From positions 1,127 through 65,126 of the forward strand of contig JAZTXJ010000093.1 of assembly GCA_045636285.1 (NCBI GenBank): a stretch of DNA of 64,000 nt, given 5' to 3'. Position numbers and translations under genes: made by a program. This document shows, piece by piece, positions 5,767 through 47,591 of this stretch (positions are counted from its first letter, which is position 1; each line of letters begins with the position of its first letter). The notes under the pieces are model-generated. The model did no database searches, was not told where the DNA came from, and saw only the letters and a program-made list of their open reading frames with translations. The stretch is from Eubacteriales bacterium. GTDB lineage: Bacteria; Bacillota; Clostridia; Oscillospirales; CAG-382.

Positions 5767-7137
5767 GTGAATATATTGAACATAAACGAATTGAATCTGA
5801 ATTCCGGTCTGTATTTTCTCGGTATCGGCGGCATCAGTATGTCCGCTATCGCAATGATTCTCGCGGGAAAAGGCTACAGTATTTCGGGATACGACCGCAC
5901 CCTTGGCGAAGTTACCGATAAGCTCGAATCCAACGGCATAAAGGTATACGATAACTTCGAATCATCACAGCTAGAAAACTGCGGCGCCGTTATATATTCT
6001 GCCGCTTTCGGAAACGATCATCCTATTATGCAAGAGGTTCTCAAAAGCGGAAAACCGCTTTATTCGAGAGCCGAAGTGCTCGGTGCGCTCGCAAAGCTTT
6101 ACAAAAATTCTGTTGCAGTAGCGGGTACCCACGGTAAATCCACGACAACCGGCATGCTCGGTCACGTTCTTCTTAATGCCTTGGGGTGCGATCCCACGGT
6201 TGTTGTCGGTGCAGTTATGCGCGACGTCGGTTCGACATACAGAATCGGCAAGGATGAAAACTTCGTCTTCGAAGCTTGCGAATACAAGGACAGCTTTTTG
6301 TCCTTCTTCCCCAAAATAGCCGTGGTTTTAAACATCAAGCTCGACCACACCGATTATTTCAGCGGAATTGAGCATATGCGCGATTCCTTCACGAAGTATA
6401 TGAACAACAGCGGAACGGACGGCTATGCGGTATACAATTTCGACTGTGAAAATTCCGTGCTTGCCGCAAAGGAATATAAAGGAACACACGTCACGTTCAG
6501 CTCCTGCGGCAATAAAGAAGCCGATTATTCCGCGCAAAATATATCATTCACCAATGGGTTTGCTACGTACGATGTTTTCAAAAAAGGCGAATTCTTTATG
6601 TCGCTTAAGCTTTCTTCTCCCGGTGAACACAATGTATCCAATTCTTTAGCGGTCGTCGCCGTGTGCGATATTAACGGAATTTCCAAAGAAGATATTGTAA
6701 AGGGTCTGTACAGCTATGCAGGCGTTGGCAGACGCTTCGAATATAAAGGAAGCTTTTGCGGTGCAGAGGTGTATGACGATTACGCTCATCACCCCGATGA
6801 AATCAAGGTCACACTTGCCGCGGCAAAGGCTATTTCGCGCGGAAGAGTTATATGCGTTTTCCAGCCTCATAACTATTCCCGTTTAAGAGATCTCTTCGAA
6901 GACTTCAAATTCTCGTTCACCGATGCTGATCTGCTTGTTCTCTGTCCTCTTTATGCGGCAAGAGAAGCTTGCGGAACCGAAGTTTCGTCGGAACTGCTCG
7001 CGAAAGAAATTGAAGGCGCCGTTTATCTCGATAGCTTCGAACGCGTAAAAGATTACCTTAAATCAGAATTAAAAAGCGGAGATCTGCTTTTAATAATGGG
7101 TGCAGGCGATATTTCGAAGCTCGCAAACAGTATTTAA
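5767..7137 (+). CDS. murC: UDP-N-acetylmuramate--L-alanine ligase
   Basis: 'FLGIGGISMSAIA' (Rossmann), 'VAVAGTHGKSTTTGM' (Mur ligase P-loop), 'DDYAHHPDEI'. The start (GTG 5767 versus TTG 5776) is uncertain. Confidence 0.92.
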   Translation: MNILNINELNLNSGLYFLGIGGISMSAIAMILAGKGYSISGYDRTLGEVTDKLESNGIKVYDNFESSQLENCGAVIYSAAFGNDHPIMQEVLKSGKPLYSRAEVLGALAKLYKNSVAVAGTHGKSTTTGMLGHVLLNALGCDPTVVVGAVMRDVGSTYRIGKDENFVFEACEYKDSFLSFFPKIAVVLNIKLDHTDYFSGIEHMRDSFTKYMNNSGTDGYAVYNFDCENSVLAAKEYKGTHVTFSSCGNKEADYSAQNISFTNGFATYDVFKKGEFFMSLKLSSPGEHNVSNSLAVVAVCDINGISKEDIVKGLYSYAGVGRRFEYKGSFCGAEVYDDYAHHPDEIKVTLAAAKAISRGRVICVFQPHNYSRLRDLFEDFKFSFTDADLLVLCPLYAAREACGTEVSSELLAKEIEGAVYLDSFERVKDYLKSELKSGDLLLIMGAGDISKLANSI

Positions 7138-35848: not shown

Positions 35849-37069
35849 TTATCTTATACCGTAGTTTTCGATAACGTAGTCCATATCCTTATCGCCTCTG
35901 CCCGAAAGGTTAATAAGAACAGAGCCGTGTTCCATTGTTTTTGCAAGCTTCATACCGTAAGCAACGGCGTGGGAGCTTTCGATTGCGGGGATTATGCCTT
36001 CGAGGCGAGCAAGCTTGTAAAAAGCATCGATCGTTTCTTCGTCGTCGATAACGTCGTATTTAACTCTGCCGATTTCCTGAAGGAAGGCGTGCTCGGGACC
36101 CGAAGAAGGATAGTCAAGACCGCTTGCAACCGAATATACGGGCGCAGGATCGCCGTTTTCGTCCTTGAGCATGATACTGTTGAAGCCGTGCATAACGCCT
36201 TCTGTGCCGTATTTAAGGCTCGCTGCGTGGTCGCCAAGCTTGGGACCTCTGCCAAGAGGCTCGATACCGTAAATTTCAACAGGATCATTAAGGAATCCTG
36301 CAAACAAGCCTGCCGCGTTCGAACCGCCGCCAACACAAGCAACGATGCTTGTGGGAAGATGTCCTGTCATTTCGATAAACTGTTCGCGCGCTTCTATGCC
36401 GACAACGCTCTGGAAATCACGCACCATCATAGGAAACGGATGCGGACCGAGAACCGAGCCGATGCAGTAAATAGAATCCTTATATTCCTTGCTGTACGCA
36501 TCAAATGCGGCGTCAACGGCTTCTTTTAAGGTTTGCAGACCGTGGGTAACCTCGATAACGTTCGCGCCGAGAATCTTCATTCTTGCAACGTTGGGCGCCT
36601 GTTTTTTAATATCAACGGTACCCATATAAATATCACATTCCAAACCGAAATATGCAGCAGCGGTAGCAAGAGCAACGCCGTGCTGACCTGCACCTGTTTC
36701 GGCGATTACCTTCTTCTTGCCCATATACTTTGCGAGCAACGCTTCACCCATGCAGTGATTAAGCTTGTGAGCTCCCGAATGGTTGAGGTCTTCACGCTTT
36801 GCATAAAGCTGTACTCTTCCGCCCAATGCATCGGAAAGGCGTTCCAAGTGCGAAACGGGCGTAGGTCTGCCCTGAAATTCCTTACGGATTCTGCGAAGCT
36901 CTGCAATAAATTTGCGGGATTGGCAGATCGAATAATAAGCATAGGTGATTTCTTCCATAGCGGCTTTAAGCTTATCATCAATATAAACGCCGCCGTACTT
37001 TCCGAAGTAGCCGTCTTTATCGGGGTAGTTATTAAAATATGTTTCAAAATCCACGTTATTAAGTATCAT
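35849..37069 (-). CDS. trpB: Tryptophan synthase beta-chain family PLP enzyme (stand-alone)
   Basis: '[12 protein letters not shown]', '[43 protein letters not shown]' (PLP lysine in GAHK), 'GGGSNAAG'. No trpA or other trp genes are adjacent. Confidence 0.88.
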
Positions 37070-37169: not shown

Positions 37170-37455
37170 GCCAAAACAAAAACGCCCTGACAGAATATTC
37201 TGCCAAGGACGAATAATTACTTATCCGCGGTGCCACCTTGAATTCACGGAAACCCGTGCACTTTTGGGATACAAATATATCCACGGCAACTAACGCGTGC
37301 CTTGCGTTGCAGAATACTTTGCGTATAACGCATTTCCTTGCACCCTCCGCGGTCCATTTGCCAAACTGTTTCTTGCCCGATTTTCAGCATCGCGGGCTCT
37401 CTGTAAAGGCGTGTTTTGGCTTTATCTCCGCTTCAACGGTTTAAACTATTAACTT
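37170..37455 (-). promoter_or_regulatory. T-box riboswitch leader, Trp specifier
   Basis: On the minus strand: AG-bay 'CAGAGAG', distal 'GCUGAAAA', candidate specifier 'AAAUGGACC' (UGG followed by a purine), T-box 'AAUUCAAGGUGGCACCGCGG', terminator 'CGUCCUUGGCAGAAUAUUCUGUCAGGGCGUUUUUGUUUU'. The bulge UGGC predicts discriminator G73, as in bacterial tRNA-Trp. Confidence 0.85.
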
Positions 37456-38727: not shown

Positions 38728-38765
38728 GAAAAAATCCTATGCAGATACGCATAGGATTTTTATTT
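38728..38765. terminator. Bidirectional intrinsic terminator
   Basis: AAAATCCTATGC...GCATAGGATTTT flanked by an A-run and a T-run. Confidence 0.85.
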
Positions 38766-39256
38766 TAACCGTTAAGCACGCGTGAGCCTCTTTCGAGCGC
38801 GACAACGCCCGTACGGCACATTTCGACAATTCCCATCGGCTTCATTACTTCTATAAAGGCTTTGATTTTCGAAGGCTCGCCCGTAACCTCGACACAGATC
38901 GATTCTGTCGTATAATCGATTATTTTTGCGCGGTATATTTCGGTCGCCGCCATTATTTCCTGTCTGTTTTCGGTTGTGTTCTTAACCTTTACCAAAAGAA
39001 GCTCGCGTTCGACGGAAGCGTTCGAATCTAAAAGCTTTACCTTTTTTACGTTATAAAGCTTTGTAAGCTGTTTGATAAGCTGCTCGCGAGCATAGTCGTC
39101 ACCATTTAAGGTGATTGTTATTCTTGAGTAATCGGGATCATCGGTTTCGCCAACGGTCAGAGAATCGATATTAAATCCTTTTCTCATAAAAAGTCCCGAA
39201 ACGCGCGAAAGAACACCGTATTTATTTTCTACGTAAACTGCGATTACACTTCTCAT
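38765..39256 (-). CDS. ilvN: Acetolactate synthase small (regulatory) subunit
   Basis: 'VIAVYVENKYGVLSRVSGLFMRKGFNIDSLTVGETDDPDYSRITI' (ACT domain). The start is ATG 39256, 5 nt after the ilvB stop; the ORF-track start at 39331 overlaps ilvB. Confidence 0.9.
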   Translation of the reverse strand: MRSVIAVYVENKYGVLSRVSGLFMRKGFNIDSLTVGETDDPDYSRITITLNGDDYAREQLIKQLTKLYNVKKVKLLDSNASVERELLLVKVKNTTENRQEIMAATEIYRAKIIDYTTESICVEVTGEPSKIKAFIEVMKPMGIVEMCRTGVVALERGSRVLNG

Positions 39257-39260
39257 TAAT

Positions 39261-40961
39261 TTATCCCTTCGTTTTTGTAATAATATTATCCACAGTACCG
39301 CCCGGCGGAAGCATAGGAAGCACAAGCTCATCCATATTTATCGCCACGTCTATCAAAAACGGACCGTTGTGGGAATAGGCTTCTTTAAAAGCATTTTCGA
39401 ATTCTTCGATATTTTCCGCGCGTAAAGCCTTCGCGCCAAAAGCCTCTGCAAGCTTCACAAAATCGGTTTTTCTTTCGAGCACGGTATTACTGTATCTTTT
39501 TTCATAAAACAGCGTTTGCCATTGCCTTACCATACCGAGAACGCCGTTGTTCATAAGAACGATAACAATATCAGAGTTATAAGTAACCGCTGTTGCAAGC
39601 TCGTTAAGATTCATACCGAAGCTTCCGTCGCCCGTAATAAGAACGGTTTTATCGTTCGAAGCAATATTGGCACCGATAGCCGCACCAAGTCCGTATCCCA
39701 TAGTGCCCAAACCGCCCGAAGAAGCAAATCTTCGCTTGCTTTCGAAATTCGCAAACTGCGCTGTCCACATCTGATGCTGACCTACGTCGGTAACGATTAT
39801 ATCGCGCTTACTTTTTTGAGCATTGATGACATCAAATATCTTTTGGGGTGTCATCGTATCCTCGGAACGCTTTTCGCTTTCTTCGGATATACGCTTCCCT
39901 TCGGATTTGAACCTTTCGACTTCATCTCTCCATACAGGATGCTCTTTCTTTTCGACCGCATTAAGTATTCTTCCGAACGAATCCTTAATATCTCCGATCA
40001 AGCCGATATCCACGCTTACGTTTTTATTGATTTCGGATACGTCTATATCGAGCTGAATGATTTTCGCATTCGGTGAATATTTGGAAACGTCGCCTGTCGC
40101 ACGGTCGGAAAAACGTACACCCACGCCAATAATCAAATCGGCCGCACGGTTCGCAACCGACGAGGCATACTGTCCGTGCATACCCTGCATTCCCAAAAAT
40201 CGTTCATAAGAATTCGGCATTGCCGAAAGTCCCATCAGAGAACAGCCTATATACGCGTCAATCTTTTCGGCAAGAGCCATGATTTCCTTTGTCATTCCCT
40301 CGCCCGCGGCGCCGCCGCCGATATAAATATAAGGGCGTTCGGATTGATTTATCAGCTTCACAGCCTGCTCGATCTGCAAATCAGAAACCGTATCGGTTTT
40401 AAAGGGTTCTACAATACCCTGCGGTACAAAAGCACATTCTGCGTCCTGAACGTCTTTGGGAATATCGATAAGTACGGGACCGGGTCTGCCTGATTTTGCG
40501 ATTCTGAATGCTTCACGAATAGTATCTGCAAGCTCGGTTACCTCTGTAACAAAGAAATTATGCTTCGTTATCGGAAGAGTTACGCCCGTAATATCTATTT
40601 CCTGAAAGCTGTCTTTACCGATAAGATTAGTCGGAACGTTGCCCGTTATGGCAATCATCGGAACGGAATCGAGCATAGCGGTCGCCAAGCCCGTAACAAG
40701 ATTAGTCGCACCGGGACCCGAGGTTGCAATAACAACGCCAACCTTGCCTGTAACGCGCGAATAGCCGTCTGCCGCATGCGCCGCCCCCTGCTCGTGTGCA
40801 GTGAGGTAGTGATTGATTCTGTCGTTTGCTTTATAGAGTTCATCGTAAAGGCTTAAAACCTGACCTCCGGGATAGCCGAAAACATCCGAAACACCCTGCT
40901 CTATAAGGGTTTCGATAATTATTCGTGCTCCCGTGAGGATATTTTTAGCAGACTTTCTCAT
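39261..40961 (-). CDS. ilvB: Acetolactate synthase large subunit (ThDP-dependent)
   Basis: 'GARIIIETLIEQGVSDVFGYPGG', 'GPGATNLVTG', 'GLGTMGYGLGAAIGA...ITGDGSFGMN'. The start is ATG 40961 (GGAGG RBS); the ORF-track start at 41054 runs through the T-box terminator. Confidence 0.93.
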   Translation of the reverse strand: MRKSAKNILTGARIIIETLIEQGVSDVFGYPGGQVLSLYDELYKANDRINHYLTAHEQGAAHAADGYSRVTGKVGVVIATSGPGATNLVTGLATAMLDSVPMIAITGNVPTNLIGKDSFQEIDITGVTLPITKHNFFVTEVTELADTIREAFRIAKSGRPGPVLIDIPKDVQDAECAFVPQGIVEPFKTDTVSDLQIEQAVKLINQSERPYIYIGGGAAGEGMTKEIMALAEKIDAYIGCSLMGLSAMPNSYERFLGMQGMHGQYASSVANRAADLIIGVGVRFSDRATGDVSKYSPNAKIIQLDIDVSEINKNVSVDIGLIGDIKDSFGRILNAVEKKEHPVWRDEVERFKSEGKRISEESEKRSEDTMTPQKIFDVINAQKSKRDIIVTDVGQHQMWTAQFANFESKRRFASSGGLGTMGYGLGAAIGANIASNDKTVLITGDGSFGMNLNELATAVTYNSDIVIVLMNNGVLGMVRQWQTLFYEKRYSNTVLERKTDFVKLAEAFGAKALRAENIEEFENAFKEAYSHNGPFLIDVAINMDELVLPMLPPGGTVDNIITKTKG

Positions 40962-40974
40962 TTGAACCTCCATA

Positions 40975-41235
40975 CAATAAAAAAACACTTTCATCTCTTT
41001 TAAAGAGACGAAAGTGTTATTACAATACTTCCGCGGTACCACTCTTTTTCGCAATAATGCGCACTCCGATGCTTAAACATCATACTCTGTAACGGGAGCA
41101 CCCGTCTGTAACTAATCTCTTTCGATTTCATCACAGCCGCTCAACGGCGACTTCGGCAAACAATACGTTATGTCTCGCACCAACCGACAATTCTCTGAAA
41201 CGATTAATTTGCTTACTATTCCGCATCACTGCGTT
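40975..41235 (-). promoter_or_regulatory. T-box riboswitch leader of ilvBN (branched-chain specifier; candidate GUC, Val)
   Basis: On the minus strand: K-turn 'UGAUG...AGUA', AG-bay 'CAGAGAA', 'GGUGCGAGA', 'GAAGUCG' specifier candidate, T-box 'GAGUGGUACCGCGG', terminator 'AACACUUUCGUCUCUUUAAAAGAGAUGAAAGUGUUUUUU'. The bulge UGGU predicts discriminator A73. Confidence 0.85.
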
Positions 41236-41241
41236 TTTAAT

Positions 41242-41292: not shown

Positions 41293-42906
41293 TTATAAGT
41301 CGTTTCCGAGCGAAAGACTGTATATCCATTCGATTTTATCTCCCGCCTTGACTATATATTCACCGCAGCTCACAGAGGGCTTTTCTCCGTTAACCAAATA
41401 CTGCCAGCCCGAAAGATCGCCGTGATCAAATTCATAAACGTTGGCAATACCCTCAACGTATACCGACGAACCCGAACCGTTTGTTTCCAAATGAATCGCA
41501 TTTGCGGCTGTTATTTCAGAAAGCACTTCGTAAACCGAATCGCCTTCAGAAATATTGCATACGGTTTCTTTAAGTATTACCCCGTTTGGAATTTCGGAAT
41601 TATCGATAACGTCACAAACTATCGAAATAGTAACCGTACCGATATAATCGTCTTCCGAAGCCGCGTTTTCGTAATAGCCTTCTTTCGTTTCGAAATCAGT
41701 TAAAAGCACAAAAGCCAATACCGCGACGATAATTACCGCCAACAGTAAAATATTTTTTGCGTTAATCTTCTTTTTAATCAGCAAAGCAATAAACGCACAT
41801 ACCGAAACAAGCGCTATAATTATAATCGCATATACCTTATAGCTAAGGTTATCTTTTTCATCGTTATGCTCGGATTTACTTGCTTCGTTGCTTGTGCTTG
41901 TATGCTCGTCCTGCGAAGGCTCGCTTTCCTCGGGAGCAGAAACAGAATCGCTTACGTTTTTATCAAACGTATAGAGCGGACCCTTTCCCTGCTTCATTTG
42001 CATATATGCAACCGAAGCAAAAAACACCTGAACGGTAGCATTTGAATTTGTTGTTCCGCCGAATATATGACTGAATCCGCCATCCTCGTTTCTGTAACGC
42101 GAAATTACGTCAAAGAGATCGCACTCATTTTTAATAAAGCGTTCATCCTCTTTGCAATCGATTCCTAACGCAGAAAGCGCCACAATAACCTGTGCTGCGC
42201 TTTCGGGGTTGTTAATGCCGTAGCTCATAAATTCTCCGTTTTCGTCCTGACGGCTCGCAAGGAGCTTCACAGCACGATCGACAGACAATTTTACTTTTTC
42301 GGTTACGTTATAAAACGGAGCAAACGATTGAATCACCATTGCGGTTACATCTACGTCTGCGTTTTTTCCGTTTAATGCCCAGCCGCCGTCATCCAACTGC
42401 ATCGAAAGAATTTTATCAATAAGGGTATTCGGGGTGTGCTTCTCAGATTCCGCTCCGTTGTTGAGTATATGTAATCCGTAAACAAGACTCATAATGCCCT
42501 GCTCGCCTATCGACTTTTCGGTTTGTTCGGCAATGTATTCATCGTCACTGCCAATCGCTACCAATGCCAGAGCATATTTCAATCGCGTAGATGCAGAATT
42601 GGTTTCGTTATTTCGCAGATATTCAAGCAATGCATTCTCGTAGCTTGAAAAATCGTAATTTCCCGTTTGCGATAATGCAATAACGTACCATTCCGAAGAA
42701 ATACCCGCTTTTTCTGTCAACGCTTCATCGATAAAACCTTGAATGCTTTTTTCTTGCAACGGTTTATAGTTATATTCAAGAACAGCGTCAATCAAATCCT
42801 GCGGTTCGCTTATTTCTTCATTTCCCAAGACCGTTACCGTTGTTAAGCAAACAAACAACAAGCTTAAGAACGCGGAGAAAATACGAAACGTTAATTTATC
42901 TTTCAT
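41293..42906 (-). CDS. Surface protein: prenyltransferase/terpene-cyclase-like alpha/alpha-toroid domain, two TM helices, then a C-terminal DUF4430 domain
   Basis: Signal peptide. Repeats 'QLDDGGWAL', 'RQDENGEFMSYG', 'RNEDGGFSH'. S/E-rich linker. TMs 'VYAIIIIALVSVCAFIALLI' and 'ILLLAVIIVAVLAFVLL'. C-terminus 'YEFDHGDLSGWQYLVNGEKPSVSCGEYIVKAGDKIEWIY' (DUF4430-type). Confidence 0.75.
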   Translation of the reverse strand: MKDKLTFRIFSAFLSLLFVCLTTVTVLGNEEISEPQDLIDAVLEYNYKPLQEKSIQGFIDEALTEKAGISSEWYVIALSQTGNYDFSSYENALLEYLRNNETNSASTRLKYALALVAIGSDDEYIAEQTEKSIGEQGIMSLVYGLHILNNGAESEKHTPNTLIDKILSMQLDDGGWALNGKNADVDVTAMVIQSFAPFYNVTEKVKLSVDRAVKLLASRQDENGEFMSYGINNPESAAQVIVALSALGIDCKEDERFIKNECDLFDVISRYRNEDGGFSHIFGGTTNSNATVQVFFASVAYMQMKQGKGPLYTFDKNVSDSVSAPEESEPSQDEHTSTSNEASKSEHNDEKDNLSYKVYAIIIIALVSVCAFIALLIKKKINAKNILLLAVIIVAVLAFVLLTDFETKEGYYENAASEDDYIGTVTISIVCDVIDNSEIPNGVILKETVCNISEGDSVYEVLSEITAANAIHLETNGSGSSVYVEGIANVYEFDHGDLSGWQYLVNGEKPSVSCGEYIVKAGDKIEWIYSLSLGNDL

Positions 42907-43717
42907 AAATACCTTTACCGATTACAAAAACAGTTATTAAGGAAGCAAGTGCAATGATTATAAACACAAAAACGTTTGAAGTATCACCCGGTTCGGGTAT
43001 TTCGTTAACGTTACCATCATTTTCTGCTTCGGAAACGCTGAAAATGCATACAGGAGGAACTATAATCGTTTCTTCGGTAACTGCGCTTACAACATACCTG
43101 CCGCCCGATTCAAGCGATATAGACACTTTTCCGTCTTTATCTGTAATATAATCGTTTTTTTCTCCGTTTATAGTTATAGCCGCGTCCTTCAAGGGCAAGG
43201 TGATAGAATTCCACGATTCATCAAAGCCCGCAACGGATAACGTTAAGGTTATCGATTCGTTTTCCTTTGCATCTACTTTGTTGACATCGAAAAACGAATA
43301 GGAATCCGACCAGCCGAGCGTATCGGTATATACAAAAGCAGAAACGAGATCGCCGCTCTTAACGGGATCTGCAAGACTCCACGCAGAAGCATTATTGATA
43401 TAATAGCCATAACTGCCCGAGGTGTCGCCCCAAAGCTTTACGATAGAAACACCGAATTCGCTTTCAGCAGAAGCATATCCGCTTTCTGCTCCGCCTTTAT
43501 AGAATGCATCGTGTGCCGCCACGAGCGTATCGTTTATTGTAAGAGCTCCGTCATCATCGATATCGGTAACGGTAACCTTTTCATAAGTTACTGCAAGAGC
43601 GCCCTTATCGGATATATTTACATATACCTCTGCTTTTAATTCTTCTGCGCTTGCGACAGTAACGCACGTCGAAAATACTATAATTAGACAGATTAATATA
43701 TAAGTGATTTTTTTCAT
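42896..43717 (-). CDS. DUF4430-domain surface protein with an Ig-like domain and a C-terminal TM anchor
   Basis: Signal peptide 'ILICLIIVFSTCVTVASA'. 'GVSIVKLWGDTSGSYGYYINNASAWSLADPVKSGDLVSAFVY' (DUF4430-type). 'DKDGKVSISLESGGRYVVSA' beta-sandwich. TM plus 'GKGIYER'. Confidence 0.7.
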   Translation of the reverse strand: MKKITYILICLIIVFSTCVTVASAEELKAEVYVNISDKGALAVTYEKVTVTDIDDDGALTINDTLVAAHDAFYKGGAESGYASAESEFGVSIVKLWGDTSGSYGYYINNASAWSLADPVKSGDLVSAFVYTDTLGWSDSYSFFDVNKVDAKENESITLTLSVAGFDESWNSITLPLKDAAITINGEKNDYITDKDGKVSISLESGGRYVVSAVTEETIIVPPVCIFSVSEAENDGNVNEIPEPGDTSNVFVFIIIALASLITVFVIGKGIYER

Positions 43718-44427
43718 TGTTTTTTCCTTTCAAATTGTTGTACGGCAAACAAGCCGTATTTCTTCTTGATTCTTAAAAGTTTGTTTCCAAACGGTTTTGC
43801 AAGCAAGAACACAAAAACAACGTTAGAGACCGCATATTCAACCGTAGTAGGCAACGCGGCAATAACGGTTGCGATATATCGCGTAAGATTAAAAGTATTT
43901 TCCGCCCAAACCGTCGCCCAGACGTCCATCGTCAAGGAATATAAAATTCCCGAAAGTCCTGCATAAACGCATAGTACGATTCTGTTTTTACGCAAAAATA
44001 CACCAAATGCACCCGCCGTAAATCCGATTAATCCCCAAGCAAACATCTGGAACGGAGTCCACGGACCCTGCCCGAAGTAGAAATTGGAAATCACGGCAGA
44101 AACGGCGCCAACCGCAAACCCCGCTTCTTTTCCCAACCATACAGCCGATATTACGGTTATTGCGGTTATCGGCTTAAAGCCGGGTAACCACGCAAAAACA
44201 AATCTGCCCAATACAGACAAAGCGATCAGAACCGCCAACACGGTAAGCTCTGAAGAGGTTACGTCTTTTCTGTCAAATGCATAAAACAGCGGTACACAGG
44301 CAAGTAACGCAACGCAAAGCGAGATCCACAAATAATACTTCTCTTTAAAAAGCACAGCGCCGAAATATACCGTAAGCGGAATAGCAACAAGCAAAATGAG
44401 CAGTGTTATTATACTTTTGTGCTTCAT
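43714..44427 (-). CDS. ECF transporter substrate-specific (S) component
   Basis: 237 aa with about 6 TM helices. It sits directly between the EcfA and DUF4430 genes with 1-4 nt overlaps. Corrinoid specificity is inferred only from the riboswitch. Confidence 0.7.
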   Translation of the reverse strand: MKHKSIITLLILLVAIPLTVYFGAVLFKEKYYLWISLCVALLACVPLFYAFDRKDVTSSELTVLAVLIALSVLGRFVFAWLPGFKPITAITVISAVWLGKEAGFAVGAVSAVISNFYFGQGPWTPFQMFAWGLIGFTAGAFGVFLRKNRIVLCVYAGLSGILYSLTMDVWATVWAENTFNLTRYIATVIAALPTTVEYAVSNVVFVFLLAKPFGNKLLRIKKKYGLFAVQQFERKKQ

Positions 44428-46106
44428 TATTGCTCACCTACCCGTGCGTTCAATCTGCACATTTCCGCCACGTGCTCACAAAGAAAGGTATTTTTGTAAT
44501 AACCGCGCGCTATTCGGTTTGCGGCAGTGGTGTAGAAGCTGTTGTCCGAAAAGAATCTCGACGTAATATCCGAAGAAACGATCTGTCCGTCAAAGAACAA
44601 GCTGCATTTATCCGAAGTCGTAGCAGAAAATTCCACGTCGTGCGTTACCGTGATAACCGTAACGCCCTCATCGTTTAAGGTCTTTATTATTTCGCCCAGA
44701 ACCATTTTTCCGGTTGCATCGATCCCCTTTGTAGGCTCGTCGAGCAACAAAATTTTCGGATCTGCAAGCAATACCTTCGCAAGCGCCGCCTTTTGCTGTT
44801 CGCCTCCGCTCAGATCGTAAGGGTGATTATCGAGAAGATGCGAAATCGAAAGCTTATGCGAAATTGCTTTTATTCTTTCTTCGGTTTCTTCCTTTGAATA
44901 TTTCAAGGTTTTGCAAATTTCAGCAAGGTCTTCCTTCACGGTCATTTCAACAAAAACCGTCTGGGGATCCTGCGGAAGAAAAGCAACGTTTTTCACGTAC
45001 AAAGAACCGTTCTTATAATCCGAAATCGTTTTTTTGTTTATATAAACTTTTCCTCTGTACGGTTTTAAAAGACCTGCAATAATATTCAGGGTTGTCGTTT
45101 TGCCGGTACCGTTACCACCCAAAATACAGTGGTGCTCACCTTTATTGATCTTTACCGAAACGCCCTTTACAACGTCATCGGATTCACGCTCATAACGGAA
45201 ATATACGTTTTCCAGCTCAACGGCAATTTCACTTTCAAATTCAGAAAGCGAATGGACGAATATGCCCTTCTTGTTTGCATAGTTAGTTCTTATAAATTCG
45301 CGTCCGTCGCGCACGGTTATAGGCGCTTTTCCTTTTCCGCCGAGCATTTCGAATATTCTCATTGCGGCAGGAAGTGAATTCTTTATAGGATGATTAGCTT
45401 TATCCGCAAAAAAATCTGTAACGGTATTCGGTGTGCCGTTAAAGGCTATACCGCCTTGCTCCATAATCAACACGCGGTCGCAAATCGGAAAAACCTCTTC
45501 CAAACGATGCTCGATAAGCAAAACGGTTATACCGAGCTCTCTGTTCAACTTCTGCAACGTTGCGATAAAGTTTGAAGCGGCTATCGGATCGAGCTGTGCG
45601 GTAGGTTCATCGAGCATAAGTATTTTGGGTTGCATAACCATAACCGATGCAAGATTAAGAAGCTGCTTTTCACCGCCCGAAAGCTCGCTCGTTTTTTTAT
45701 AAAACCAATCCTGAATGCCGAAATAGCTTGCCATTTCAGCCGTTTTTCTTCGAATTTCCTGCGTTTCAAGCCCAAGACTTTCGAGCCCGAACGCAAGCTC
45801 GTGCCAAACAAGATCGGTAACTATCTGGCTTTCGGGATTTTGCAAAACGAAGCCGATCTCCGAAGCAGATTGACGGTTGTCGATTTCATTTCGAGGAATG
45901 CCTCTATAAATAATCGAACCGTCAATTTCTCCGTAGGGCGCCGTTTCGCGCTTCAAAAGCTTCAGCAGTGTAGATTTTCCGCAACCGGATTCGCCGCAAA
46001 GAACCACGAATTCGCCTTCTTTTACGCTAAACGAAACGTCTTTTACTGCATACACAGAAGATTCGTTATATCGAAAACTTAAATTTTCGACCTGTAATAT
46101 TTCCAT
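44427..46106 (-). CDS. ecfA: Fused tandem ECF/ABC ATPase (EcfA-EcfA')
   Basis: Two Walker A sites ('GESGCGKST', 'GGNGTGKTT'), two signatures ('LSGGEKQ', 'LSGGEQQ') and two Walker B sites ('MLDEPT', 'LLDEPT'). Confidence 0.92.
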   Translation of the reverse strand: MEILQVENLSFRYNESSVYAVKDVSFSVKEGEFVVLCGESGCGKSTLLKLLKRETAPYGEIDGSIIYRGIPRNEIDNRQSASEIGFVLQNPESQIVTDLVWHELAFGLESLGLETQEIRRKTAEMASYFGIQDWFYKKTSELSGGEKQLLNLASVMVMQPKILMLDEPTAQLDPIAASNFIATLQKLNRELGITVLLIEHRLEEVFPICDRVLIMEQGGIAFNGTPNTVTDFFADKANHPIKNSLPAAMRIFEMLGGKGKAPITVRDGREFIRTNYANKKGIFVHSLSEFESEIAVELENVYFRYERESDDVVKGVSVKINKGEHHCILGGNGTGKTTTLNIIAGLLKPYRGKVYINKKTISDYKNGSLYVKNVAFLPQDPQTVFVEMTVKEDLAEICKTLKYSKEETEERIKAISHKLSISHLLDNHPYDLSGGEQQKAALAKVLLADPKILLLDEPTKGIDATGKMVLGEIIKTLNDEGVTVITVTHDVEFSATTSDKCSLFFDGQIVSSDITSRFFSDNSFYTTAANRIARGYYKNTFLCEHVAEMCRLNARVGEQ

Positions 46107-46957
46107 TGCAGATCCTCCTTTAACTCAATAATCAACGGCATAAAGCAAAGTAAACCGAAGCCGATAAAAGCGATTATCGCCACAATATCCGCTTTTTGTG
46201 CTTTTATCGCGGGATAGTACGAAAATGCGAGCTTTTCGCTGAACATTCCATAAAAAACCAGAGCGTCTAAAAGAACTATCATAACAAGCATCGCAAAATC
46301 TCTTGCTTTGAAACGAAACAAAGAAAAATGCGTTCTTCCCTTTAATCCGTAACCGCGGCTTTTCATAGAAGTACCCGTATCTATCGCATTTTCAAGCGCC
46401 CAGCCAATCAGCGACGAATACGTTCTCATAGTGCTTTTAATCTTGTCGGTATATGCATCAGACGAATACATACCCATTGCTTTTTGCGAAGCCTTTATCC
46501 TGCCATAACGTTCCTTTAGCAACGGAACGAATCTGAGTGCAGACGATATAAGCAACGCAAATTTAGGCGAAAATTCTCCGAACAGGCAAAGTAATTTATC
46601 CTCGGTCATAATAATGCCGAAGCATTTAAACCAATATATTACCGAAATTACCATCAATGCTATCCCTAACCCATATAAAAACGCTTCAAGGGTTATAGGG
46701 TTTCTGTTCACAAAGAAAAGAACGGTTACCCCTTTATGCGAAAAGAAGGGATTTATTATTGCCACAAGCATCAGCATAAATAAATATACCGAAAATTCCT
46801 TAATGAATTTCGCTTTGTTGATTTTGAGAAAATAAGCCATTGCACCGACAAACGAAATCAAATGCAATATAGGGTTTTGAGAAAACATCGAAACGACAAG
46901 CACAGAGGCGAAATAAACCGCCGCTGTTATTGGGTGAAATGTACCGAAGCTTATCAT
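46079..46957 (-). CDS. ecfT: ECF transporter transmembrane (T) component (CbiQ family)
   Basis: Polytopic, about 292 aa. 'RALRFVPLL'-type coupling-helix region ('SSALRFVPLLKERYGRIKASQKAMG'). The start is ATG 46957, overlapping the stop of the upstream small ORF (ATGA). Confidence 0.85.
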   Translation of the reverse strand: MISFGTFHPITAAVYFASVLVVSMFSQNPILHLISFVGAMAYFLKINKAKFIKEFSVYLFMLMLVAIINPFFSHKGVTVLFFVNRNPITLEAFLYGLGIALMVISVIYWFKCFGIIMTEDKLLCLFGEFSPKFALLISSALRFVPLLKERYGRIKASQKAMGMYSSDAYTDKIKSTMRTYSSLIGWALENAIDTGTSMKSRGYGLKGRTHFSLFRFKARDFAMLVMIVLLDALVFYGMFSEKLAFSYYPAIKAQKADIVAIIAFIGFGLLCFMPLIIELKEDLQWKYYRSKI

Positions 46958-47169
46958 TTTCTTTTCCTCTTTCGATTTTTGGATGTTTCTGTTTTCGTGC
47001 TCTCTTTCAAGCCTGCAGACTCTAACGCTCTCGGCCACGGACCGAGAAACGCCTTAATGCGAGATCTTGTGACTTCATCGAAGTCGTCTTTTTTCGGTAA
47101 CCTATCAACCTCCCTATGCTTTTGTATGAGCAATTCTATTGCCCACTGCTTTTTCTCATCGGGTGTCAT
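46954..47169 (-). CDS. Small basic protein (71 aa) with one homing-endonuclease-associated-repeat-like motif
   Basis: GGAGG RBS 8 nt before ATG 47169. 'LPKKDDFDEVTRSRIKAFLGPWPRALESAGLKE' resembles the HNH-associated repeat (...FGSWneALeaAGL). K/R-rich tail. The stop overlaps the ecfT start. Confidence 0.55.
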   Translation of the reverse strand: MTPDEKKQWAIELLIQKHREVDRLPKKDDFDEVTRSRIKAFLGPWPRALESAGLKESTKTETSKNRKRKRK

Positions 47170-47261
47170 CAGCCATACCTCCGAAATTTAATAAATAAAA
47201 TACCCTTTAACCATACCGGTCAAAGAGTACAACAGATTTACCGCGCAACGAAAAATGTGTG

Positions 47262-47515
47262 CAAAACAAAAAGAGTGCATACACCGAGCAATGATAAATC
47301 GGTTGCACTCTTCACACCAAAGTTGTGTTAAACCTACGGAAAAATTCCAAAAAGACACGGCAGGTATCCTGACTTATGATGAAGCGGCAAATGCCGCAAA
47401 AGAACGCGCCTTCTCGGTATTAACCAATGGCACAATACGTCCTTTATCTTGTCAAATACAGTAATGGCGGTTGTTCCGGATTCGAACCGGATTCCCTTTT
47501 ACATCTACTCAGCGT
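47262..47515 (-). promoter_or_regulatory. Cobalamin (B12) riboswitch with a terminator expression platform
   Basis: On the minus strand: 'AAAAGGGAAUCCGGUUCGAAUCCGGAACAACCGCCAUUACUGUA', 'GUGCCAUUGGUUAAUACCGAGAAGGCGC', B12 box 'AAGUCAGGAUACCUGCC', then the hairpin 'GAAGAGUGCA...UGCACUCUUUUUGUUUU'. Confidence 0.85.
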
Positions 47516-47560
47516 ACAACTTTTCAAACCGTATCTTCTTAATCGGTATTTAATTTTAAG

Positions 47561-47591
47561 TGATTATAACATACTATTTTGTATTTTTCAA
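47561..47591 (-). promoter_or_regulatory. Sigma-70 promoter of the riboswitch/ECF operon
   Basis: On the minus strand: TTGAAA, 17 nt, TATAAT. Confidence 0.7.

Follow-up and report, generated by a model that had tools for sequence, protein, structure and literature searches.

What is the function of a bacterial protein in which domains resembling the two of the animal vitamin B12 carriers are joined by a membrane hairpin? The question is raised by a locus from a gut clostridium, an Eubacteriales bacterium (contig JAZTXJ010000093.1), of which a window of 64,000 nucleotides (nt) was analyzed; all coordinates are window positions. The gene concerned is an open reading frame (ORF) with an ATG start at 41293..42906 on the minus strand. 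Its product has 537 amino acids (aa) and is referred to as p537; the upstream partner, a 273-aa protein, is referred to as p273. We consider it probable, though well short of certain, that p537 is the cell-surface corrinoid capture protein of a dedicated, B12-repressed importer of the energy-coupling factor (ECF) type. The parts of p537 and the basis for their assignment are as follows.

42823..42906, minus strand: signal peptide or signal anchor, aa 1-28 (MKDKLTFR plus a hydrophobic core), from hydropathy.
41959..42819, minus strand: alpha/alpha toroid ("alpha domain"), aa 30-316, with repeats of the Q-x-x-D-G-G-W type and an invariant DVDVTAM, from Pfam, AlphaFold2 (AF2), Foldseek and alignment columns.
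41848..41958, minus strand: S/E-rich disordered tether, aa 317-353, from its composition (S, E, D) and an AF2 confidence (predicted local distance difference test, pLDDT) <50 over aa 318-353.
41695..41841, minus strand: transmembrane (TM) hairpin, aa 356-404 (TM1 356-377, predicted cytoplasmic loop KKKINAK, TM2 385-404), from hydropathy and AF2.
41647..41694, minus strand: juxtamembrane spacer, aa 405-420, with the motif T-D/N-F-x-S-x-D-x-Y-Y, from the alignment.
41296..41646, minus strand: DUF4430 or transcobalamin-type beta-grasp domain ("beta domain"), aa 421-537, from Pfam and Foldseek.

A preliminary description had read this order (signal peptide, toroid, S/E-rich linker, two TM helices, DUF4430 domain) from the translation, and it is borne out by Pfam, hydropathy and AF2. 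The strings quoted there (QLDDGGWAL, QDENGEFMSYG, RNEDGGFSH, GDLSGWQYLVNGEKP and GDKIEWIY) are all present in the p537 translation. Hydropathy reveals three hydrophobic segments (aa 8-28, 358-377 and 385-405), with KKKINAK between the last two. At the N-terminus, a basic n-region is followed by a hydrophobic h-region, and a hydrophobic segment is found at this end in 110 of the 120 best homologues. Anchoring as a lipoprotein was rejected upon reading of the sequence, as LFVC is not a lipobox. The DUF4430 match (Pfam, aa 455-530, E=2.3e-18) recurs in all 72 aligned homologues. Chance and an artefact (a fusion through a frameshift or a misassembly) were also rejected, because the hairpin architecture is kept across hundreds of independent assemblies.

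An AF2 model was built from the 72-sequence alignment (mean pLDDT 85.5, predicted template-modelling score 0.68). It contains an all-helical domain (aa 34-305, pLDDT mostly >90), two long helices (aa 356-377 and 383-402, pLDDT ~90) and a beta-grasp-like domain (aa 421-530). In a Foldseek comparison with the PDB, the 15 best matches were transcobalamin, intrinsic factor and haptocorrin, aligned across both domains with E values from 4e-9 to 5e-7. They were followed by terpene cyclases and prenyltransferases (e.g. drimenyl diphosphate synthase), at E ~1e-4 and over the toroid alone. When the beta domain of human transcobalamin (5no0) was compared by itself with the model, the template-modelling score was 0.77 and the root-mean-square deviation (rmsd) 3.0 A. 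AF2 and Foldseek are thus in agreement with the earlier view that the N-terminal domain is an alpha/alpha toroid and the C-terminal domain is transcobalamin-beta-like.

At the sequence level, terpene cyclases and prenyltransferases are the closer matches to the alpha domain. In Pfam, Prenyltrans (aa 142-285, 26.6 bits versus a cut-off of 26.5) and SQHop_cyclase_C (aa 184-280, 26.3 versus 26.1) match p537; together with SQHop_cyclase_N they cover aa 142-297, with scores at or just below or above the cut-offs. SQHop_cyclase_C is matched by 62 of 72 family members and Prenyltrans by 34. A profile search of the PDB with the alpha domain found cyclases (squalene-hopene cyclase at E=1.4e-8) and did not find transcobalamin. 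The cyclase acid motif DVDDTA aligns with the DVDVTAM of p537, which is invariant across the family. From these matches, the N-terminal domain could be a surface enzyme of the terpene-cyclase/prenyltransferase type with the DUF4430 domain as an accessory, its likeness to transcobalamin being just a shared fold. We consider this highly improbable. The DxDD motif is broken (D-V-D-V), and cyclase family scores are far under the cut-offs (25 bits versus 323 for TIGR01787, 19.5 versus 431 for TIGR01507). Human transcobalamin has a similar SVDTAAMA at residues 174-181, so that the VD-TA-M-type motif looks structural rather than catalytic; this short resemblance is the sole link between the alpha domains at the sequence level. 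Cobalamin carriers, not cyclases, top the Foldseek ranking, the gene context is wholly that of B12 transport, and a single extracellular toroid would be located where isoprenoid diphosphates are not expected.

The two domains are joined in a way that is conserved throughout the family. Two adjacent hydrophobic helices lie between them in all 120 best homologues (41-56% identity) and in 145 of another 147 representatives clustered at 50% identity. The inter-helix loop has 3-12 aa and a net charge of +2 to +6 (mean +4.1) in each of the 120, and the 15 aa downstream of TM2 carry a charge of -2 on average. According to the positive-inside rule, such a basic loop predicts that the loop is cytoplasmic and that both globular domains are outside, irrespective of whether the signal peptide is cleaved. 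The proposal of the preliminary description that both domains face outside is, as a prediction, supported by the loop and by the acidic flank after TM2. Independently of the loop charge, p273 points to an extracellular module: an LPXTG sortase signal is found in 16 of 71 p273 relatives, and p273 is fused straight to the alpha domain in three metagenomic proteins (P0243, P0247, P0327).

The geometry is asymmetric, and this asymmetry is conserved. The tether before TM1 is variable in length (11-155 aa in homologues, median 51), whereas the spacer after TM2 is short and constant (10-17 aa in 72/72 aligned homologues), with a nearly invariant Y412. Conserved flanks are Y-K-x-W ahead of TM1 and F-V-x-x-T-D/N-F-Q-S past TM2. 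Conservation is lowest in the tether (0.23), amounts to 0.45-0.49 in the TM helices and 0.44 in the signal peptide, and reaches 0.69-0.72 in the two globular domains. That the helices are conserved no better than the signal peptide speaks for a hairpin that serves chiefly as an anchor, as judged from the alignment. A function beyond anchoring would be that TM2 is an internal cleavable signal that releases the beta domain, or that the hairpin docks onto EcfT or the S component. We regard this as unlikely, even though the hairpin is retained nearly throughout the relatives counted above and is flanked by conserved motifs, and even though T at -1 and L/V at -3 could in principle form a signal-peptidase site. 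Besides the low conservation of the helices, TM2 has a hydrophobic run of about 20 residues without a polar c-region, which is anchor-like and not typical of a cleavable signal. Moreover, relatives exist in which the alpha and beta domains are separate or soluble-linked chains (see below).

The gene context points to B12 transport. In the window, p537 is encoded by the last gene of an operon on the minus strand, which comprises the following elements upstream of it, in order of transcription.

47563..47591, minus strand: promoter-like site TTGAAA-17-TATAAT with TG, directly 5' of the riboswitch (consensus scan 11/12, a pattern match alone).
47342..47548, minus strand: cobalamin riboswitch aptamer RF00174 at the operon head (Rfam cmscan, 85 bits versus a gathering score of 31.5, full-length model).
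47200..47230, minus strand: terminator-like hairpin with a T tract (pattern scan).
46954..47169, minus strand: conserved 71-aa ORF, HNH_repeat-like, with a K/R-rich basic tail and no signal peptide, the first gene after the riboswitch (Pfam PF18780, E=4.8e-9).
46079..46957, minus strand: EcfT/CbiQ-type transmembrane component (Pfam CbiQ, E=3.4e-9; TIGR02454 match).
44427..46106, minus strand: fused EcfA-EcfA' ATPase (EcfAA') with two ATP-binding cassette (ABC) domains (ABC_tran twice, E=1.4e-64; TIGR04520 ECF_ATPase_1, 372 bits versus 315).
43714..44427, minus strand: ECF S component, CbrT-like, predicted to be corrinoid-specific (Pfam ECF-ribofla_trS and ECF_trnsprt).
42896..43717, minus strand: p273, a secreted partner with a signal peptide, two beta-rich domains (the second prealbumin/immunoglobulin (Ig)-like) and a C-terminal TM anchor (AF2 pLDDT 91.5).

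The terminator-like hairpin is likely the expression platform of the riboswitch, since it is situated between the aptamer and the first ORF. The true start of EcfT is probably the ATG at 46957 and not the GTG at 47038 of the listed ORF, because homologues align from residue ~20-35 and because this ATG overlaps the stop codon of the 71-aa ORF (ATGA); a reading frame from the GTG would itself overlap the 71-aa ORF. The S component has its best PDB sequence match in 6FNP_A (E=9.7e-9), a 182-aa chain labelled "Membrane protein" in the entry for the vitamin B12 transporter ECF-CbrT. We infer from the chain length that this is the S component CbrT.

The association holds far beyond the window. A search returned 1,861 database proteins that match p537 at E<=1e-5 (the best 120 are those used above), and a HMMER scan of 1.84 billion cluster representatives (50% identity) gave 10,032 matches at E<=1e-3 and 1,343 at E<=1e-30. 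In databases, the relatives are just named "DUF4430 domain-containing protein". A scan of species-representative genomes showed that at least 574 of them encode a relative, and 80 of these were taken as loci (numbered with the prefix L). All 80 come from gut or rumen Clostridia (Oscillospiraceae, Ruminococcus, Acutalibacteraceae, Lachnospiraceae). All five genes (p273, p537, EcfT, EcfAA' and the S component) occur together in 61 of the 80 loci, in this order in 56 and in the order of the window in 5. A Cobalamin match at the Rfam gathering score was found upstream of the cluster in seven of the first eight loci checked. Riboswitches confirmed by Rfam were then used to seed an iterated nhmmer profile; applied to the complete clusters with enough upstream sequence, it detected a riboswitch just upstream of 52 of 56. 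This, together with RF00174 at the head of the operon in the window, confirms the association with B12 riboswitches.

In five loci (L014, L017, L020, L023 and L039) there are two riboswitches (at 6827-6996 and 9717-9849 in L014), one before p273-p537 and one before the genes for the 71-aa ORF and EcfT. These loci have two separately B12-controlled units. Even without adjacent ECF genes, the p273-p537 pair is riboswitch-controlled in four loci (L001, L003, L010, L026). Two further RNA elements were encountered near these operons: a Clostridiales-1 small RNA directly downstream of the S component gene (L011, 12893-13059, 137.7 bits) and an S-adenosylmethionine riboswitch downstream of the operon (L005, 10738-10834).

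These data suggest the following mechanism. When intracellular adenosylcobalamin is low, the riboswitch would permit expression of the whole operon. The beta domain would be held about 15 residues from the membrane surface, while the alpha domain would swing on its flexible S/E-rich tether and close onto the beta domain around a corrinoid. Such a tethered clamp might catch scarce corrinoid at the membrane surface and pass it to the neighbouring CbrT-like S component, with import driven by the EcfT-EcfAA' module. The Ig-like surface protein p273 may act together with p537. Corrinoid binding between the domains, the hand-over to the S component and the role of p273 are inferred from homology and context.

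Several observations weigh against corrinoid capture for import. To the cyclase-like sequence of the alpha domain must be added that Pfam Cobalamin_bind (PF01122) has no match in p537 at E<=1, nor is it among the 25 families that are commonest across the 72 relatives. Superposition of the whole chain on holo-transcobalamin and other carriers by Foldseek gives template-modelling scores of only 0.42-0.55 and an rmsd of 11-14 A, which suggests that the two domains of the model are not placed as in ligand-bound carriers; the model is no rigid-body match to the closed clamp. No riboswitch is detectable at four complete clusters and at two solo genes (L027, L038), nor at split loci from Lactobacillus and Bacillus, described below (L082 was searched to E<=0.1). 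Evidence of expression was not found: sampled words were shared (7-9%) by just two DNA runs from gut metagenomes and by no RNA run. In the literature, corrinoid-binding data were not found for bacterial members of the p537 group. The sole experimentally studied homologous system, lsa1836-1840 of L. sakei, has been linked to heme uptake, not B12 (bioRxiv 10.1101/864751).

The last of these points raises the question of the ligand. The same architecture might serve an ECF module that imports heme, another tetrapyrrole, or incomplete corrinoids such as cobinamide alone. In L. sakei, deletion of the homologous five-gene cluster impaired heme uptake, which complementation restored (bioRxiv 10.1101/864751), and the beta domain of p537 shares 48% identity with its separate DUF4430 counterpart in L. 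curvatus. The 2007 paper on toroid proteins (see below) carries a reviewer's warning that B12 should not be assumed for every member (PMC1796856). It is, however, the Clostridia family that is under a cobalamin riboswitch in about 90% of clusters, sometimes under two, while the Lactobacillus and Bacillus loci have none. The best solved relative of the S component is CbrT, a component of a B12/cobinamide transporter. Cobinamide and other cobamides are still corrinoids and are compatible with corrinoid capture by p537. On balance, a different ligand seems quite improbable.

Alternatively, p537 might bind corrinoids at the surface without feeding uptake, serving for sequestration or storage against neighbours, or as a sensor or shield, independent of the ECF transporter. 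The solo genes would fit such a role. They are stand-alone p537 relatives (L027, 7680-9368; L038, 7785-9551) without p273 and ECF genes, located between a gene of the lipoate/biotin ligase family on one side and HD/OB-fold and PfkB genes on the other, i.e. among housekeeping genes. The four loci in which the pair lacks adjacent ECF genes would also fit, and ECF-CbrT of L. delbrueckii functions without such a protein (PMC5997447). Set against this are the completeness of the five-gene cluster in most loci, the shared riboswitch control, which fits induction under B12 starvation, and the short constant spacer, which holds the beta domain at the membrane surface beside the transporter. We thus think it unlikely that p537 is not a feeder.

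The opposite, stronger version of the capture hypothesis would be an obligate, docked subunit: the p537 clamp, p273 and perhaps the 71-aa ORF would belong to the transporter, with the hairpin placing the clamp above the S component as this topples, so that corrinoid could be handed over directly. By the textbook definition, ECF transporters are ABC importers without extracytoplasmic binding proteins, and canonical ones work without any, which also counts against the more general capture role. A docked subunit would make this the first ECF importer to depend on an extracytoplasmic binding protein; we see it as rather unlikely.

In most of the 80 loci, p273 and the p537 homologue are neighbours, and wherever the p273 gene is found close by, its position is directly upstream. 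Foldseek matches are tandem Ig-like surface proteins, and 61 of 71 p273 relatives have a CarboxypepD_reg-like domain. The first domain of p273 has no Pfam family; its strand order in the AF2 model (beta-beta-alpha-beta) is beta-grasp-like. In view of the 2007 description, p273 was considered as a second DUF4430/SLBB paralogue, but this could not be established. Pfam DUF4430 is found in none of the 71 members, a hidden Markov model of the beta domain scores 0-5 bits against them, and hhalign of the p273 and p537 family profiles aligned signal peptides or short stretches alone.

The 71-aa ORF is found in 42 of the 80 related loci (tblastn, 40-81% identity). In every case a cobalamin riboswitch lies before it and the first controlled gene after it; that gene is p273, or EcfT after a second riboswitch. 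In the window, its TGA overlaps the likely ATG of EcfT. It looks like a sixth member of the operon and is possibly nucleic-acid-binding.

The relatives deploy the alpha and beta domains in three ways: on two separate chains, on one chain with a soluble link (the animal arrangement) or on one chain with the hairpin. Split loci were analyzed from Latilactobacillus curvatus (L082, CP117684.1) and Bacillus sp. N5-665 (L083, NZ_CP093325.1). Their records carry the label "plasmid" (0.59 and 5.5 Mb, respectively) but look like chromosomes or chromids. In L. curvatus, the toroid protein ends with LPQTG, a TM helix and KRQVEHR before the stop codon. Only 9 nt further, the DUF4430 protein starts with MSKKR, a hydrophobic signal anchor and a linker, and the genes for EcfT, EcfAA' and the S component follow. 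p537 shares 23% identity over 355 aa with this alpha protein (E=1e-11) and matches the beta protein over 85 aa (E=6e-25, at the identity stated above). The Bacillus locus has the same layout, with the beta protein being a lipoprotein; its alpha protein additionally has an N-terminal DUF4430-like domain and PKQEK repeats. In P0329, alpha and beta are joined through a soluble Ig-like linker. In P0081, p273 is fused to the p537 homologue, so that the p273 anchor and the p537 signal peptide form a second hairpin, one gene upstream.

The hairpin is most readily understood as left over from a read-through fusion of neighbouring genes, one for an alpha protein anchored at its C-terminus (in the membrane or by LPXTG) and one for a beta protein with an N-terminal signal anchor. 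The joining of an L. curvatus-type pair would yield exactly the order alpha domain, tether, TM helix, basic loop, TM helix, beta domain, and P0081 shows a like event between p273 and p537. With the predicted topology, the hairpin would be a natural example of how read-through from the gene of an anchored protein into that of a secreted one creates a two-helix membrane link while both domains stay outside. A different, multivalent use of the same two domains is seen in giant surface proteins of 1,100-2,200 aa with several toroid copies and DUF4430 domains (L081 from Vescimonas fastidiosa, NZ_AP023416.1; P0329; P0344), which adjoin cadherin-like beta-sandwich proteins.

Two T-box leaders lie downstream of p537 in the window. 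A second promoter-like site and the ilvB T-box leader follow 22 nt past the p537 stop codon. This leader (41001..41238, minus strand) precedes genes for the large and small subunits of acetolactate synthase (39261..41054 and 38765..39331), and another T-box leader (37202..37445, minus strand) precedes a gene for a pyridoxal phosphate enzyme resembling tryptophan synthase beta (35849..37069). The identities of these genes were taken from the translations alone.

How does p537 relate to known systems? Transcobalamin, intrinsic factor and haptocorrin (PDB 2BB5, 2PMV, 4KKI) have the same order, a toroid followed by a DUF4430 beta-grasp domain, and they are extracellular, as is predicted for both domains of p537. 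They are, however, soluble single chains with a short flexible linker between the domains, while p537 has a long disordered tether and a two-helix membrane hairpin. Their Pfam families are PF01122 (Cobalamin_bind), to which the alpha domain of p537 has no detectable sequence relation, and PF14478; the region of their cobalt-coordinating His173 has no equivalent in p537 beyond the VD-TA-M motif.

A class of bacterial proteins to which p537 belongs was described by Burroughs, Balaji, Iyer and Aravind in 2007 (PMC1796856). According to that paper, these are fusions of an alpha/alpha toroid, N- or C-terminal, with a transcobalamin-type SLBB domain; they have signal peptides and Gram-positive anchors, are encoded in CbiO/CbiQ operons with a second extracellular protein, and likely scavenge B12. 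It was also proposed there that animals acquired transcobalamin from such bacteria. p537 shows the traits of the class: predicted export and anchoring, a toroid with DUF4430, CbiQ/EcfT and CbiO/EcfA neighbours, and a link to a B12 riboswitch. The searched text of the 2007 description mentions no membrane hairpin between the domains, which p537 has, and riboswitch control and a CbrT-like S component are also outside it.

A split pair has been described as well. In the models of Verplaetse et al. (2019), Lsa1840 and Lsa1839 of Lactobacillus sakei are two distinct transcobalamin-like proteins, alpha and beta respectively, that belong to an ECF-like system (bioRxiv 10.1101/864751). Lsa1836-1840 cover the same five functions as the p537 operon (a secreted toroid, a secreted DUF4430 protein, EcfT, fused EcfAA' and an S component). 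In the L. sakei-type system, alpha and beta are separate polypeptides, which p537 joins, a p273-like partner gene is lacking, and the phenotype is heme uptake. The alpha protein from L. curvatus is LPXTG wall-anchored with extra repeat domains, and its locus is without a cobalamin riboswitch.

The preliminary description had, as far as it was aware, taken the architecture to be undescribed. This holds for the membrane hairpin, in that a full-text literature search, with subscription journals outside its coverage, found no description of a toroid-TM-TM-DUF4430 protein. It does not hold for the pairing of a toroid with a transcobalamin-type beta domain (PMC1796856), nor for the split pair (bioRxiv 10.1101/864751). 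The novelty claim was thus overstated: the hairpin-linked form is a common but undescribed variant in Clostridia, while the idea of scavenging is already known. New relative to the known kind are the membrane-hairpin link, the riboswitch control, the conserved Ig-like partner and the small ORF.

As for the transporter, the closest solved S component is that of ECF-CbrT from Lactobacillus delbrueckii (6FNP; Santos et al. 2018, PMC5997447), and EcfT and two ATPase domains are also in common. ECF-CbrT is a group II transporter with a shared ECF module and has no extracytoplasmic binder. The p537 operon, in contrast, codes for a dedicated (group I) module with fused ATPases, two surface proteins and a small ORF. 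A large family from gut and rumen Clostridia is thereby predicted to couple a dedicated, B12-riboswitch-controlled importer of the ECF-CbrT type to a transcobalamin-like two-domain surface binder.

A high-affinity binder on the surface beside a transporter is a logic that p537 would share with BtuG and BtuH of Bacteroides and with the membrane-tethered or fused substrate-binding domains found in ABC importers of Gram-positive bacteria. These binders have other, unrelated folds (beta-propeller or classical substrate-binding protein), and the transporters are TonB-dependent BtuB or type I/II ABC importers. We know of no such Bacteroides binder or tethered substrate-binding protein that is split by a membrane hairpin. 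If p537 captures corrinoids and feeds the transporter, this would account for the way in which Gram-positive anaerobes of the gut compete for B12 when it is scarce. The animal B12 carriers, for which a Gram-positive origin was proposed in 2007, would then have bacterial relatives in this family that lend themselves to experiment, and p537 would be a Gram-positive counterpart of the surface B12 binders of Bacteroides.

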